Below are positions 1,764 through 5,699 of a stretch of 8,593 bases of DNA, in pieces; the stretch's first letter is position 1, and every line of letters begins with the position of its first letter. Source of the DNA: a virus (Duplodnaviria; Heunggongvirae; Uroviricota; Caudoviricetes); the IMG/VR virus record IMGVR_UViG_2713896777_000020; one strand, 5' to 3'. Position numbers and translations under genes: made by a program. The notes below the pieces were generated by a model, which saw only the letters and a program-made list of their open reading frames with translations, did not search any database and was not told the origin of the DNA.

Positions 1764-2021
1764 CTAATCTTCAAAAGCAGAAAAACCAGCCTTAATCCCA
1801 GCTTCTTTCAGAGACGGCAACGATGTGACAAATTCATTTGCACGCAAAATAAAACCATCCGTCACAAGCCCATCCACAAAATGAATTAACGCAGCTCCAC
1901 TCTTCCTTTGTTGAGACTGTAAACATTTAATACGGCAGTGGCTGACAATAGCGCCCTTCTCAACGCGCACAGTATAGAGGCCATCTTCACTAAAAATTTC
2001 ACGTAATTCTTCGATTCTCAT
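1764..2021 (-). CDS. small phage protein (85 aa), in the position of rem between hok and ydfU in Qin
   Basis: Track ORF 1764..2024; likely true start is the ATG at 2021-2019 with GGAAGGA about 9 nt upstream. Naming is by position only. Confidence 0.5.
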   Translation of the reverse strand: MRIEELREIFSEDGLYTVRVEKGAIVSHCRIKCLQSQQRKSGAALIHFVDGLVTDGFILRANEFVTSLPSLKEAGIKAGFSAFED

Positions 2022-2146
2022 CAACAGAATCCTTCCAGATAAATAGCACTCCCCTGTTCGGGGTCCATCCCTCTTCTCCCTGCGCGCTACTTAAGTATTT
2101 TTGATTCTATTCCGGCGCCGTCCGGAACTTCAAACGCGTTGAAAAT

Positions 2147-2171
2147 AAAAACAAAAACCCGCCGAAGCGGG
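2147..2171 (-). terminator. Rho-independent terminator downstream of hok
   Basis: Plus strand aaaacaaaaa-cccgc-cgaa-gcggg; on the minus strand this is a GC stem-loop followed by a T-run. Confidence 0.6.
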
Positions 2172-2313
2172 TTAAGTGCGGGTGCGTNNNNNNNNNNNNN
2201 NNNNNNNNNNNNNNNNNNNNNNNNNNNNNNNNNNNNNNNNNNNNNNNNNNNNNNNNNNNNNNNNNNAAACAGATGACGATCAGGGCGATTAACATCGCCT
2301 TTTGCTGCTTCAT
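2172..2313 (-). CDS. hokD: Hok-family membrane toxin, interrupted by the N-gap (3' end not determinable)
   Basis: Minus-strand 2313-2267 translates MKQQKAMLIALIVIC, matching the remembered N-terminus of HokD/RelF (Gef/HokC is MKQHKAMIVALIVIC). AAGGAG 9 nt upstream of the ATG. Paralog assignment rests on 15 residues plus Qin-like neighbours. Confidence 0.6.
2188..2266. other. assembly gap (79 N) inside the hok CDS
   Basis: Run of N characters. Confidence 0.99.
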
Positions 2314-2505
2314 AGCCTGCTTCTCCTTGACCTTTCGGTCCGTAAGAGGCAATCTATATGTGACGAGCATATAGGGGCCTCACTTCGATTTATAGTCGGG
2401 TGGGGCTTTTATCTATCTGCCGTTGGTGTTCATGCCCGAGGCAGATAGCCTCAAGCACCCGCAGCAATCCTACTTAACTCTGCCGTTACAGCAAACCGTT
2501 TTCGC

Positions 2506-2529
2506 CCGATATGGGAATTCCCATATCGG
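2506..2529. repeat. perfect 24-bp palindrome CCGATATGGGAATTCCCATATCGG
   Basis: Checked base by base; identical to its reverse complement; centred on GAATTC; lies between the moron terminator and the hok start. Confidence 0.9.
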
Positions 2530-2614
2530 AATGAATTCAGTTCACCTGGCGAGGCTTAGCGTACAATTTTTTCCGTTTTGTGAGCTGCCCCTACATGCCG
2601 CTGGCGCGGCATCC

Positions 2615-2645
2615 GGAAAAAGAATCCACGTCCTGAAGGACGAGG
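2615..2645 (-). terminator. candidate intrinsic terminator downstream of the moron CDS
   Basis: Minus strand: cctcgtcc-ttca-ggacgtgg (7 of 8 bp paired) then attcttttt, immediately after the stop at 2649-2651. Confidence 0.45.
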
Positions 2646-2648
2646 ATG

Positions 2649-3407
2649 TCAAGTGCCTTTCCTGGTCCAGCCATATTTTTTGAATGCAGGCGCCGCTTCA
2701 TCGGTTTGTAGCCATTCTGCAAATCGACGGGTTTCATCATTTGCATCCTGACGTACTGTAATGTTCATATCACGCCATATCACGTAGTCTGGCGCTATTT
2801 CCACGACATCACCAATTTCTGGATTACTGGCTGCCCAGTCAGCCCAGGTTATCCAGACATCTGCTCCAGGCTGATTCTCAAGAGCCTTACGTGCAGTTCC
2901 GCTATTGGGCGCATATAAAATAATATTTTTTCGGATTGCGGCGACAGTTTCTATATTCCCTTTACGTCCGGCAATATCTTCCCAGACGCCAGTGCCTGAT
3001 GTATTACTGGTACCACCACCATCATTAACAATTACGCCAATCCCAGGTCTGGTCAGGTCGTCAATACTCCGGATATTTTTAGGATTACCTTTCTTTACCA
3101 GTAAAATACTTTTTCGCAGATAAAGAGGCTGAATATCTTTTTCACTGAAGCTGTCTTTATGGTCCCGAATGATAGCCAGAGCAGATTGTTCTGATGCGCC
3201 AAACAAGATATCTGCATTTTTTTTGGCATCTTCATTCCATTTGTTCTGTGGGCCGTAATGAACGTTCACTATAATACCTGTTTTTTCGGCATAAAGTTTG
3301 GCTGCATCAAGCAAGGCTGTATGCGGGCCACCAGGACCATACAGATTGATATCAGCATAAGCAGCAGAAGACAGGAATATTAAAAAACCTGCCATTATGT
3401 TCCTCAT
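2649..3407 (-). CDS. secreted ModA-like (molybdate/tungstate-type) periplasmic binding protein; orphan moron
   Basis: Track ORF, 252 aa. ATG at 3407 with AAGGAG about 7 nt upstream. N-terminus MRNIMAGFLIFLSSAAYA looks like a Sec signal peptide (AYA then D). ADILFGASEQ resembles ModA ADLFISADQ and the C-terminal FKKYGWT resembles ModA FKRYGFT. Region is AT-rich relative to the flanking phage genes. Confidence 0.8.
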   Translation of the reverse strand: MRNIMAGFLIFLSSAAYADINLYGPGGPHTALLDAAKLYAEKTGIIVNVHYGPQNKWNEDAKKNADILFGASEQSALAIIRDHKDSFSEKDIQPLYLRKSILLVKKGNPKNIRSIDDLTRPGIGVIVNDGGGTSNTSGTGVWEDIAGRKGNIETVAAIRKNIILYAPNSGTARKALENQPGADVWITWADWAASNPEIGDVVEIAPDYVIWRDMNITVRQDANDETRRFAEWLQTDEAAPAFKKYGWTRKGT

Positions 3408-3571
3408 AAAAAACTCCTTTTATTGGTTATCATGAAATAAAGTTATAAACACTACAAATAATATATATTACATCCAGATAAACTTATCCGACTTTACCTC
3501 GTGCATAGCTTGTTATTTAAAGTCAACAAAATAAGGAAAATTATACGCATATTGAAGAGTATAAACCTTAC

Positions 3572-3599
3572 ATGTTGATTACATTTTTGTAATCAACAT
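3572..3599. repeat. inverted repeat, 12-bp perfect arms ATGTTGATTACA / TGTAATCAACAT around TTTT
   Basis: Checked base by base; lies in the AT-rich region about 165-190 bp upstream of the moron start codon. Confidence 0.85.
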
Positions 3600-3662
3600 C
3601 CTGTTTGGAATAGCCAGCCTTTAATGGATAACTATTTCTGACAATGCAATGAGTATAATCAA

Positions 3663-4137
3663 GTCCATCTTCCACTGAGAATTAGAGGCGGCATGCTTTT
3701 TCCGGCTCTTGCCGGATATCCGTAATTGTCCATAATCTGCAGATTTATACCTTCTGCATGACCTGTCAGCGAAAATTTGTCCGGTGTTTCTACGGGAATG
3801 ACATCAAAAGTTACACGCACTCGCGTTACCGTGTAGACCTACTTTCCTGCACTTGCAAGATCACAGTGGTGTAACCGTAACAGGAATTTATTCTCTGGAC
3901 CGGCAGTAAATCCCTGAGTGGCGTGGTTCCCATATCAATTTCCCGCCAGGCAGCCTCCATTGCCAGCGTACAGGCTGGAGCCATGACCTGCCCTTTAAAT
4001 CTGGCCCGACCATCCCACCGGACGTGTTCTTCTCCCCTGAACTTAGGTACAGTCATCTCCAGTGGCACAAAAGTGTCAGCGCCATAATTTTTGACCATTA
4101 TCGCGCTACGGATATTTTGTTGACTGGTGAAAATCAC
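3663..4137 (-). pseudogene. possible degraded fimbrial-subunit-like remnant (two frames)
   Basis: Track ORF 3826..4137 contains RFKGQVMAPACTLAMEAAWREIDMG, with the same Cys-to-Gly spacing as FimA [24 protein letters not shown]. The next frame (3838-3663) reads ...TGHAEGINLQIMDNYG, compare FimA NVGVQILDRTG. No start or RBS; frames broken. Weak, motif-level only. Confidence 0.2.
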
Positions 4138-4412
4138 CCCGCAGAATCAGGCTTATTCCCTTAACCTGGGCTTTCATCCTGACCGCCGCCTCACTACGAC
4201 CAATCAGACTGCCGATGCATTTTACCTTCATTGTTAGTATCATGATTTCAGGCCTGCACCATCCGCTCATTGCCCGGACTTCCGACAAATCCCGGCAACC
4301 ATATCCCGGTGCTTGTTCAGCTCCCGCAGCGCGGCGCAGACTCGCTCCCACTTCTGGACATGATTCTTCGCCCTACGCAGTTCGCGATTTGCCATATGCA
4401 GCGATGGCAAAA

Positions 4413-5000
4413 TCAAATCATCTTCTCGCGTTGCAGTAAACGATGGCAGCGACTGCACAATGTCCGCCACAGTTTCTGTTTTAATATCTTCCTGTGTTGC
4501 ATCTTTCTGTACCGGTAACGAACACCGGCTGGCTGAGGAAAGGCTTTACCATCGGTTTCCGCTACCGATTCAACTTTCGGCTCTGCTGGTAAATTATCAC
4601 CTGGTATGCAGTAACGAATTTTACCGTTCTGGTTTACGCGAATCAGACGACCTTTGCTGATTGCCATTGCCAGCGTTGAAGCAACTTTGCGGGATGTTGT
4701 ACCGAACAGCGTAGCCAGTTCATCCGCCGTTTGTGGTCCGCGTTGTTCAATCGTCGCGGTTAAATCGCACTCTGAGATTTTCGCTTCTGTTGCCGTGGTG
4801 GTTTCTTCTGGCGCTGGCTGTTCCTGCTGAACGTTGTTATCAGCCACACGCCAGGTGTATACGCTTTTATCAACGAAGCCAGCCTTTTTCAGTTCCCACA
4901 GCTCGTTCAGTACTTCTTCACGACTGATATCAAGTCGCGCAGCCAGCTCTACCGACGTGGCTTTTCCCATCGCTTTCAGTGCGTCAAAAACAGTCTCCAT
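4413..5000 (-). CDS. phage protein with two winged-helix-like segments, in the ren position after P
   Basis: Track ORF; ATG at 5000 with GGAGG 7-8 nt upstream, 33 nt after the P-like stop. N-terminal [30 protein letters not shown] resembles a wHTH. The last 50 or so residues look low-quality, so the 3' end may be wrong. Confidence 0.55.
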
Positions 5001-5033
5001 AAATTTCCTCCCGGTAAAAAATCACTTCTCAAC

Positions 5034-5699
5034 TCAAACAAAACCAGCCGCTTTCCGGCGTTCATATTCCTGTTTCAGCAACTCAATTGGCGTTGGCCCC
5101 GACGGGCGTTTGGGGGCCGCCAGTTGTCGCCGGACTGGCGGAACGCTCAGGCCGTTACTAACATGCTTTGCCCATTTCGTCAGTTGCCGTTCTGCAAGCC
5201 GTTTTAATTCCCCTTCGGTCATCTGGCGCTCAATCCCCTTTGAACGCATCTCGAGGCAAATGTGATACAGCACAGGCTGAGACCACGGGTACTTATCACT
5301 TCCGTCGTATCGCCAGGACTCATTGCGCCAGCGGCGGTACTCCTCCATCACAGCATCCACCGTCAGACCGAATGGATTGGCTCCGCTTTTCGAAATCAGT
5401 GCCACAAACTCAGCCAGGTCCGGAGGCCATGTTTCACCCGCCCGGCAGCGGTCCATGCACTGGCGGCAGACCTGCCGGATTTGCTGCTCAGTCATCGCGC
5501 CAATCTGTGCAATCCAGAGCTTCGAAGGTGCGGCCCCGTTCTTCTGGATCCAGCGGTTCGAATAAACCACCCCCATGAGTTCCCACAGCTTCCAGGCCGT
5601 TTCCGTCGCTGATAAATCCGTTTTCACGTTCCCACTGCTCACGTGCTGCCCGAATTTCCTGAACTGCCCGTGATGCGGTGCCACCTGGTGCTGCTGCAT
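5034..5699 (-). CDS. lambda P-like replication protein (helicase loader)
   Basis: Track ORF, 221 aa. Blocks align with remembered lambda P: MTEQQ (P: TTMEQ), PDLAEFVAL (P: PGQFVAW), YPWSQPVLYHICLEMR (P: YPWKSNAHYWLVTNLY), TEGELKRLAERQL (P: TDAELRRKAADEL). Start uncertain because of overlap with the upstream ORF. Confidence 0.8.
   Translation of the reverse strand: MQQHQVAPHHGQFRKFGQHVSSGNVKTDLSATETAWKLWELMGVVYSNRWIQKNGAAPSKLWIAQIGAMTEQQIRQVCRQCMDRCRAGETWPPDLAEFVALISKSGANPFGLTVDAVMEEYRRWRNESWRYDGSDKYPWSQPVLYHICLEMRSKGIERQMTEGELKRLAERQLTKWAKHVSNGLSVPPVRRQLAAPKRPSGPTPIELLKQEYERRKAAGFV

Follow-up and report, generated by a model that had tools for sequence, protein, structure and literature searches.

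Does a hok-family toxin gene that is cut short by a scaffold gap, and that lacks the relBE partner found beside hokD in Escherichia coli K-12, represent a stray toxin or part of a complete toxin-antitoxin system? The question arises from a stretch of 8,593 nucleotides of tailed-virus DNA (IMG/VR record IMGVR_UViG_2713896777_000020), referred to here as the window. An earlier note placed the gene at 2147-2420; the whole hok locus extends slightly wider, from about 2143 to 2494. As we describe here, the locus is very probably a hok/mok/sok type I toxin-antitoxin cassette of complete and canonical form, located in the early part of a PPompW-type, lambda-like prophage of pathogenic E. coli, and the gap within it an assembly break.

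The gap lies in a locus conserved in complete genomes

The segment 1750-2700 of the window corresponds to one locus in 547 complete E. coli genomes, in which both flanks of the gap are collinear and 99.9-100% identical to the window. These genomes belong to O157 (including O157:H7), O26, O111, O103, O145 and other strains, and carry 'PPompW', a widespread prophage of lambda-like type that occupies the ompW site and is usually defective (PMC8112680). A further 10 records, titled 'Enterobacteria phage PPompW', contain the same locus and annotate the gene 'gef: phage maintenance protein' and its neighbour 'rem'; in the bacterial genomes the annotation reads paa (AcfC family adhesin), hokD, hypothetical protein, the name hokD coming from PGAP. 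In the annotated reference locus the gene order is P, DUF1627, a fimbrial pseudogene, paa, hok, a rem-like ORF and DUF968. It is therefore paa that lies upstream of hok and, as the earlier note had recognized, there is no relBE partner. The same note had raised the prospect that the contigs on either side of the gap might come from different loci, and the collinearity of the flanks in all 547 genomes indicates that they belong to one. Direct comparison with a single reference, the locus of the O157:H7 strain PV15-279 (L001), gave the same picture, with 2267-5699 and 1034-2187 of the window each collinear with it at 99.9% identity.

The N run comprises exactly 79 bases (2188-2266), and in complete genomes 163 nt separate the identical flanks (L001 3435-3597), so that the matched span is 1035 nt in the references and 951 nt in the window. 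A mask of the same length as the sequence that it covers was considered as the origin of the N run and rejected, since the references hold 163 nt, not 79, between identical flanks. In the reference, the 163-nt piece supplies the rest of hok (codons 16-51 with the stop codon), together with a GC-rich hairpin and the 5' half of fbi, an element of the mRNA 3' end. Hidden in the window assembly, then, are 36 of the 51 hok codons and half of fbi, in accord with the proposal of the earlier note that most of the coding sequence, including its end, falls inside the gap. The intact locus would contain AATCGTCATAGTG...CATCCTCA and an ORF of 156 nt, and would be 84 bp longer than the scaffold. The locus is found at at least 99% identity in 545 records, and every copy listed or inspected in detail has an intact annotated hokD/gef; by extension from these other, collinear complete genomes, hok is probably intact in the strain from which the window derives.

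Why the assembly should have broken at this point is suggested by the distribution of the missing sequence. The 163-nt piece is present in 4707 of 5426 complete E. coli genomes and, in the enterohaemorrhagic strains listed, occupies 4-8 places per genome; for O157 Sakai the reported number of Hok/Gef genes is 14 (PMC2887945). The contig ends, moreover, coincide with the points at which the window copy begins to diverge from its paralogues: the left edge of the gap reads TTTAATCG in the window locus and TTTAACCG in both hokW and K-12 hokD, and the right edge GCACCCGCAC in the window locus against GCACCCGCGC in hokW. Because the missing piece is multi-copy and the breaks fall where the paralogues part, the gap most likely reflects collapse of the repeated hok sequence in a short-read assembly, and insertion of an IS element is an unlikely cause. 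In practical terms, hok genes present in several copies are points at which short-read assemblies of pathogenic E. coli break.

The hok coding sequence and its product

The visible 5' part of hok (2267-2313, minus strand) amounts to 15 codons plus 2 nt. Translation would begin at the ATG at 2313-2311, upstream of which the strand reads AAGGAGAAG/AAGGAGAAGCAGGCT, with the Shine-Dalgarno sequence AAGGAG just ahead of the start codon; the N-terminus, MKQQKAMLIALIVIC, can be read down to 2267, where the N run begins. The 15 visible residues are identical to the N-termini of K-12 HokD and HokW, and the earlier assignment of a Hok-family N-terminus behind a strong ribosome-binding site is thus upheld. 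Within the window, the sequence 3' of the gap shows no Hok C-terminus, again as had been noted before.

In the gap-closed reference the ORF encodes a protein of 51 amino acids, MKQQKAMLIALIVICLIVIVTALVTRKDLCEVRIRTGQTEVAVFTAYEPEE, which matches the Hok/Gef family of Pfam (PF01848, HOK_GEF) with 77.2 bits against a cutoff of 22. The protein displays 98% identity with K-12 HokD (50 of 51 residues, the exception being T17I), 90% with HokW of phage 933W, 80% with HokC and 33% with HokB. The NCBIfam Hok models gave only sub-threshold matches (44 bits against a curated cut-off of 73), and the name HokD consequently rests on the 98% identity with the K-12 protein. The coding sequence of K-12 HokD is toxic on overexpression (bioRxiv 10.1101/2025.08.07.668861).

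In the reference Hok the codon for Tyr47 is UAC followed by G, a UACG context located at L001 3526-3529 and so inside the gap of the window. Low to moderate A-to-I editing is reported for the K-12 mRNAs of hokC, hokD and hokE, and it is to editing that the three encoded proteins owe the cysteine conserved at position 46 (HokB numbering) (PMC12214031). If HokB is taken as the model, editing of the Tyr47 codon could add a second periplasmic cysteine to the Hok described here, a presumed partner of Cys30.

The hok mRNA: putative promoter, leader, mok and folding elements

Scans of the window and of the gap-closed reference for strict sigma-70 consensus sites reported neither the hok nor the sok promoter, and both were placed by alignment to annotated loci. 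For hok we used an alignment of four loci, comprising the gap-closed window locus, hokW, hokC and hokB. The putative -35 box, TTGCTG (2489-2494, minus strand), is weak, fitting three of six consensus positions, and 933W has TTGCGG at the equivalent site. It is followed, after a 16-nt spacer, by a putative -10 box, TAGGAT (2467-2472, minus strand), that lies 6 nt ahead of the conserved 5' end of the mRNA. The -10 column of the alignment reads TAGGAT in the window locus, TAGAAT in hokW, TATAAT in hokC and TAGGAT in hokB. This conservation is consistent with the suggestion in the earlier note that hok, in this setting, has a promoter of its own. The promoter boxes are accompanied in the four-locus alignment by conservation of tac, the mok start, GCCUCUUAC, the Shine-Dalgarno region CAAGGAGAAG and a 3' GCACCC motif.

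An Rfam scan of the whole window returned a single hit, to RF01794 ('sok'), at 2311-2460 on the minus strand; it spans the full model (1-157), and its score of 103.9 bits (gathering score 59; E = 2.3e-23) is far beyond chance. The match lies on the sense strand of hok and ends at the hok AUG. It should be emphasized that the RF01794 model, with its 157 positions ending in AUG, describes the leader of the hok mRNA with the Sok target, and not the antisense Sok of about 55-70 nt itself, so that the strand calls of this family need care. The region 2311-2460 accordingly comprises the hok mRNA leader with the Sok target and the mok start region. Its first nucleotides, GGGUGCUUGAGG (2449-2460, minus strand), constitute the tac element at the mRNA 5' end; the Rfam model starts at 2460, and the motif is nearly invariant in the four hok loci.

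The visible part of mok runs from 2370 to 2267 on the minus strand, with its ATG at 2370-2368 and a GAGG 7 nt upstream, at 2381-2378. The reading frame encodes MLVTYRLPLTDRKVKEKQA and then continues into Hok, in frame, having started 19 codons ahead of hok. This in-frame layout equals that of the annotated mokW/hokW of 933W and mokC/hokC of K-12.

At the other end of the transcript the fbi element, CCUCAACGCACCC, straddles the edge of the gap just before the terminator, and its visible 3' half, ACGCACCC (2180-2187, minus strand), pairs with the mRNA 5' end. The gap-closed mRNA (L001 3241-3637, 397 nt) has a predicted fold of -163.8 kcal/mol (z = -6.8), and in this minimum-energy structure the first 12 nt of the RNA pair with CCUCAACGCACCC. 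The pairing corresponds to the tac-fbi closure of R1 hok mRNA, the type of structure that the earlier note had proposed to look for by folding the leader. The predicted energy of the tac-fbi duplex is -21.5 kcal/mol in both the window locus and hokW, and -21.8 kcal/mol in hokB, where two changes in tac are matched by compensatory changes in fbi. Among the four loci the duplex is absent only from K-12 hokC, the 3' end of which has been cut off by IS186.

Beyond the gap the minus strand reads ACGCACCCGCACTTAACCCGCTTCGGCGGGTTTTTGTTTTT and contains an intrinsic terminator (2143-2173), in which the hairpin AACCCGCTTCGGCGGGTT at 2173-2156, with seven pairs (five of them G-C) and a loop of four, is followed by the T-run TTTGTTTTTA. 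A terminator at this position had been pointed out in the earlier note and is borne out. The only site in the region that resembles the sigma-70 consensus, TTGAAG-18-TAGAAT (2104-2133, minus strand), is located downstream of the hok terminator. It points at the rem-like ORF (1764-2024, minus strand), which aligns with K-12 rem, and may be the promoter of that ORF.

A putative sok gene opposite the mok start

A sok-like antisense RNA on the plus strand around 2320-2450 had been proposed previously, with the reservation that no convincing promoter could be located. The proposal itself agrees with our alignments, in which the promoter boxes, +1, 5' tail and hairpin of the candidate gene line up with those of sokC and sokW. 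The reservation is true of a strict consensus scan, which misses the promoter likewise, but does not hold for alignment, by which a putative sok promoter was found at 2327-2355 (plus strand). The region searched before was the right one, but the match of the promoter to the consensus is weak. It consists of a -35 box TTGACC (2327-2332), a 17-nt spacer and a -10 box CAATCT (2350-2355). The corresponding arrangements are TTGACC-17-CACTCT in sokC and TTGCCT-17-TAACCT in sokW. Although CAATCT fits the consensus at only two of six positions (A at position 2 and T at position 6), the window sok, sokC and sokW all retain these same two bases in the -10 box, together with TTG in the -35 box.

The ends of the RNA were transferred from the annotated genes. 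The annotated start of sokC is 8 nt inside mokC on the opposite strand, and that of sokW has the same relation to mokW; in the window this position is G2362 (plus strand), 6 nt from the -10 box. The predicted Sok RNA, GACGAGCAUAUAGGGGCCUCACUUCGAUUUAUAGUCGGGUGGGGCUUUUAUCUAU, would therefore occupy 2362-2416 (plus strand), with a length of about 50-55 nt and a 3' end formed by a hairpin and a U-tract that reaches to about 2410-2416. Its predicted fold (-22.6 kcal/mol, z = -4.1) comprises a single-stranded 5' tail of about 12 nt, one long GGGGCC...GGGGC hairpin and the U-tract, and a fold of this tail-hairpin-U-tract type is also predicted for the annotated SokC, SokW and SokB. The RNA is antisense to the Shine-Dalgarno sequence and start codon of mok. 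Judged by these sequence features, a sok gene with its own promoter appears to be present at 2327-2416 (plus strand), and Sok is probably transcribed from that strand. The equivalent promoter of sokW is functionally required to suppress the toxicity of HokW (PMC8621323).

Relationship to other hok loci

The closest characterized counterpart is hokW/mokW/sokW of the Stx2 phage 933W and the Sakai prophage Sp5 (AF125520), which is likewise a cassette of a lambda-like prophage. Experiments have shown it to be a type I toxin-antitoxin system, in which SokW neutralises the toxic HokW and which hastens lysis once the prophage is induced (Takada et al. 2021, PMC8621323). The two loci, about 82% identical in DNA sequence, have in common the in-frame mok, the 5' end GGGUGCUUGAGG, fbi and the position of Sok relative to the mok ATG. 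They differ in the Sok hairpin region, which is 21 nt shorter in the window locus than in 933W (Sok being about 50-55 nt rather than 71 nt), and in the boxes of the sok promoter (TTGACC/CAATCT against TTGCCT/TAACCT). The genomic setting also differs: the window cassette belongs to the early region, where paa and the rem-like ORF flank it, whereas that of 933W is near the end of the genome with hypothetical genes on either side, and PPompW prophages, in contrast with the source of hokW/sokW, have been reported to be defective (PMC8112680).

The absence of relBE can be set against the arrangement of K-12 hokD (relF) in the Qin cryptic prophage. In Qin the order is relB-relE-hokD-rem, with relBE directly upstream of the toxin gene and hokD third in the operon, as the earlier note had stated; upstream of hok in the window there is no relBE but the native leader, a unique spacer and paa. 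The homology between the two loci spans the hok Shine-Dalgarno sequence, the coding sequence, fbi, the terminator and rem, and amounts to 87% overall with near identity across hok. It starts at AGGAGAAGCAGGCTATG, K-12 lacking everything 5' of AGGAGAAG, and the breakpoint falls inside the sok -35 box. K-12 hokD is consequently without tac, the Sok target, the mok start and the sok gene, and has relBE in their place. A loss of canonical toxin-antitoxin parts from K-12 hokD through rearrangement has been described (PMC12214031). By this sequence comparison the window cassette is the complete form, of which K-12 relBE-hokD keeps only the 3' part. The earlier note had treated hok without relBE as an oddity, which overrated it: hok without relBE is the normal state and the K-12 arrangement the rearranged one.

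K-12 hokC/mokC/sokC (gef) resembles the window locus in its Hok protein (80% identity), in-frame mok, identical sok -35 box (TTGACC) and 17-nt spacer, and SokC, at 59 nt, is of similar design and length. The K-12 locus, however, has a non-prophage chromosomal context, and IS186 has removed the fbi element that is retained in the window.

The mok and hok genes of plasmid R1 hok/sok are read in different frames. The R1 system (parB) shares with the window locus its regulatory logic, the order of elements (tac, Sok target, mok, hok, fbi, terminator) and a similar mRNA length (PMC8621323, PMC9841398), but is plasmid-borne and has a proven role in post-segregational killing. A DNA-level search of a plasmid collection did not retrieve R1 hok/sok, which is too divergent, HokW being only 44% identical to R1 Hok (PMC8621323). 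The search returned mostly non-mobilizable plasmids of about 84-100 kb with copies that are about 81% identical and annotated hokD.

Alternatives to an intact cassette

It could be argued that hok in this strain has been disrupted by an IS element, a frameshift or a deletion concealed by the gap, and is a dead remnant comparable to K-12 hokA, hokC and hokE. Most of the coding sequence does lie under the N run, IS insertions into K-12 hok loci are documented (IS186 is found 20 nt after hokC; PMC12214031), an IS element would break an assembly too, and one PPompW record, H36, has IS629 near the locus. The H36 match, however, extends no further than query position 816, so that the break, like the nearby IS629, falls within the rem-like ORF and outside hok. 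In addition, among the 545 records with at least 99% identity the copies listed or inspected carry an intact hokD/gef, the missing piece recurs 4-8 times per genome in the strains listed, and the breaks sit where paralogues diverge (TTTAATCG against TTTAACCG, GCACCCGCAC against GCACCCGCGC), as repeat collapse would yield. Disruption of the gene is thus very unlikely. The multi-copy nature of hok also invites the suspicion that the scaffold is chimeric at the gap, with the paa-side and rem-side flanks derived from two hok-bearing prophages and joined via the shared hok repeat. This scaffold is not fully trustworthy, as its other N run (984-1033) does join non-adjacent DNA: positions 1-983 are only 92% identical to the reference locus, duplicate the 1034-1452 stretch and have a 99.9% match in O26 that is separated by about 516 kb from hok/paa in that genome. 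At the gap in hok, by contrast, both flanks are collinear with a single locus at 99.9-100% identity in the 547 genomes, which include the O26 strain E2865, also the best match to 1-983. The paa-side spacer (2498-2600) is single-copy, and the rem-like flank is 100% identical to the reference locus compared with about 87% for the Qin copy of K-12. A chimera at this gap is, in our judgement, the least probable of the alternatives.

The remaining alternative denies the toxin gene a working antitoxin; hok would be an orphan, with nothing but the folding of its mRNA or weak transcription to silence it, in the manner of K-12 hokD, which persists without Sok. The weak -10 box of sok (CAATCT) and the failure of the strict scan to report a promoter are compatible with this proposal. 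Against it, the leader, Sok target and Sok hairpin are all conserved, the leader being well above the Rfam threshold; the sok -35 box does not differ from the one in the annotated sokC, and A2 and T6 of the -10 box are kept, as in sokC and sokW; the predicted RNA folds like known Sok RNAs; and the equivalent sokW promoter is needed to suppress HokW toxicity (PMC8621323). We regard an orphan hok as rather less probable than a disrupted one, though not quite so improbable as a chimera.

Proposed mode of action

If the locus is a complete hok/mok/sok cassette, as we favour, its mode of action would probably resemble that of the characterized systems. The anatomy, homology and predicted folds are those of the locus itself, and the dynamics, toxicity and role set out here are modelled on R1 hok/sok and hokW/sokW. 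The weak promoter at about 2494-2467 (minus strand) would direct synthesis of a stable mRNA of about 397 nt that starts near 2460, and in the full-length molecule the tac-fbi pairing would deny access to ribosomes and to Sok alike. Trimming of the 3' end would allow the RNA to refold such that mok (ATG 2370) becomes translatable, and translation of hok (ATG 2313) would be coupled to that of mok. Sok, abundant but short-lived, would be produced from the plus strand and, by covering the ribosome-binding site and start codon of mok, would stop translation, with the duplex of hok mRNA and Sok then being cleaved by RNase III. A fall in Sok, through loss of the element or induction of the prophage, would release synthesis of the 51-residue Hok, which would enter the inner membrane and cause depolarisation or cell death.

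What such a cassette contributes to a defective prophage may be sought among several candidate roles, namely stabilisation of the element, assistance with lysis after induction and exclusion of other phages. Assistance with lysis has been demonstrated for hokW in Sp5 (PMC8621323), and chromosomal hok loci tested earlier gave no post-segregational killing (bioRxiv 10.1101/2025.08.07.668861). A more speculative possibility, and one to which we attach little credence, is that the cassette might be wired to the state of the prophage. A palindrome at 2506-2529 (described below) might serve as the operator for a phage or host regulator and, in combination with the weak sok promoter and editing of the Tyr47 codon (UACG) by TadA, might make Hok an induction-timed lysis helper or an abortive-infection effector, even in a defective prophage.

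Much about the locus is already known. The gene bears the name hokD or gef in the annotation of hundreds of complete genomes, its relatives hokW/sokW and hokC/sokC are characterized, and the enrichment of hok genes in prophages has been described (bioRxiv 10.1101/2025.08.07.668861). The result has little importance beyond annotation hygiene; it is of modest interest in that the cassette is the complete counterpart of the truncated K-12 hokD, and marks the point at which relBE replaced the leader and sok.

Neighbouring sequences

Elsewhere in the window, the 50-N join at 984-1033 is not collinear with the reference. It appears to link two different lambda-like prophages through paralogous DUF968 regions, since 1-983 duplicates 1034-1452 and matches a position about 516 kb away in O26 genomes. 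Neither the gap sizes nor the joins of the scaffold in this record can be relied upon.

Just upstream of the hok cassette, paa (2649-3407, minus strand) encodes an AcfC-family adhesin with the Pfam domain SBP_bac_11, and is an inserted accessory gene with its own terminator (2642-2629). The region beyond it (3568-4137, minus strand) is a frameshifted fimbrial protein pseudogene in the reference annotation. The spacer between paa and hok contains a perfect 24-bp palindrome, CCGATATGGGAA/TTCCCATATCGG (2506-2529), which has an EcoRI site at its centre and lies upstream of the putative -35 box of hok at a distance of 12 bp; in 8.6 kb, chance alone would give about 5e-4 palindromes of this kind. 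In 580 genomes this spacer is single-copy, and it is specific to the junction of paa and hok; the homology with the hok module of 933W starts right after the palindrome. The palindrome might act as an operator, mark a module boundary or form a hairpin against read-through from paa.
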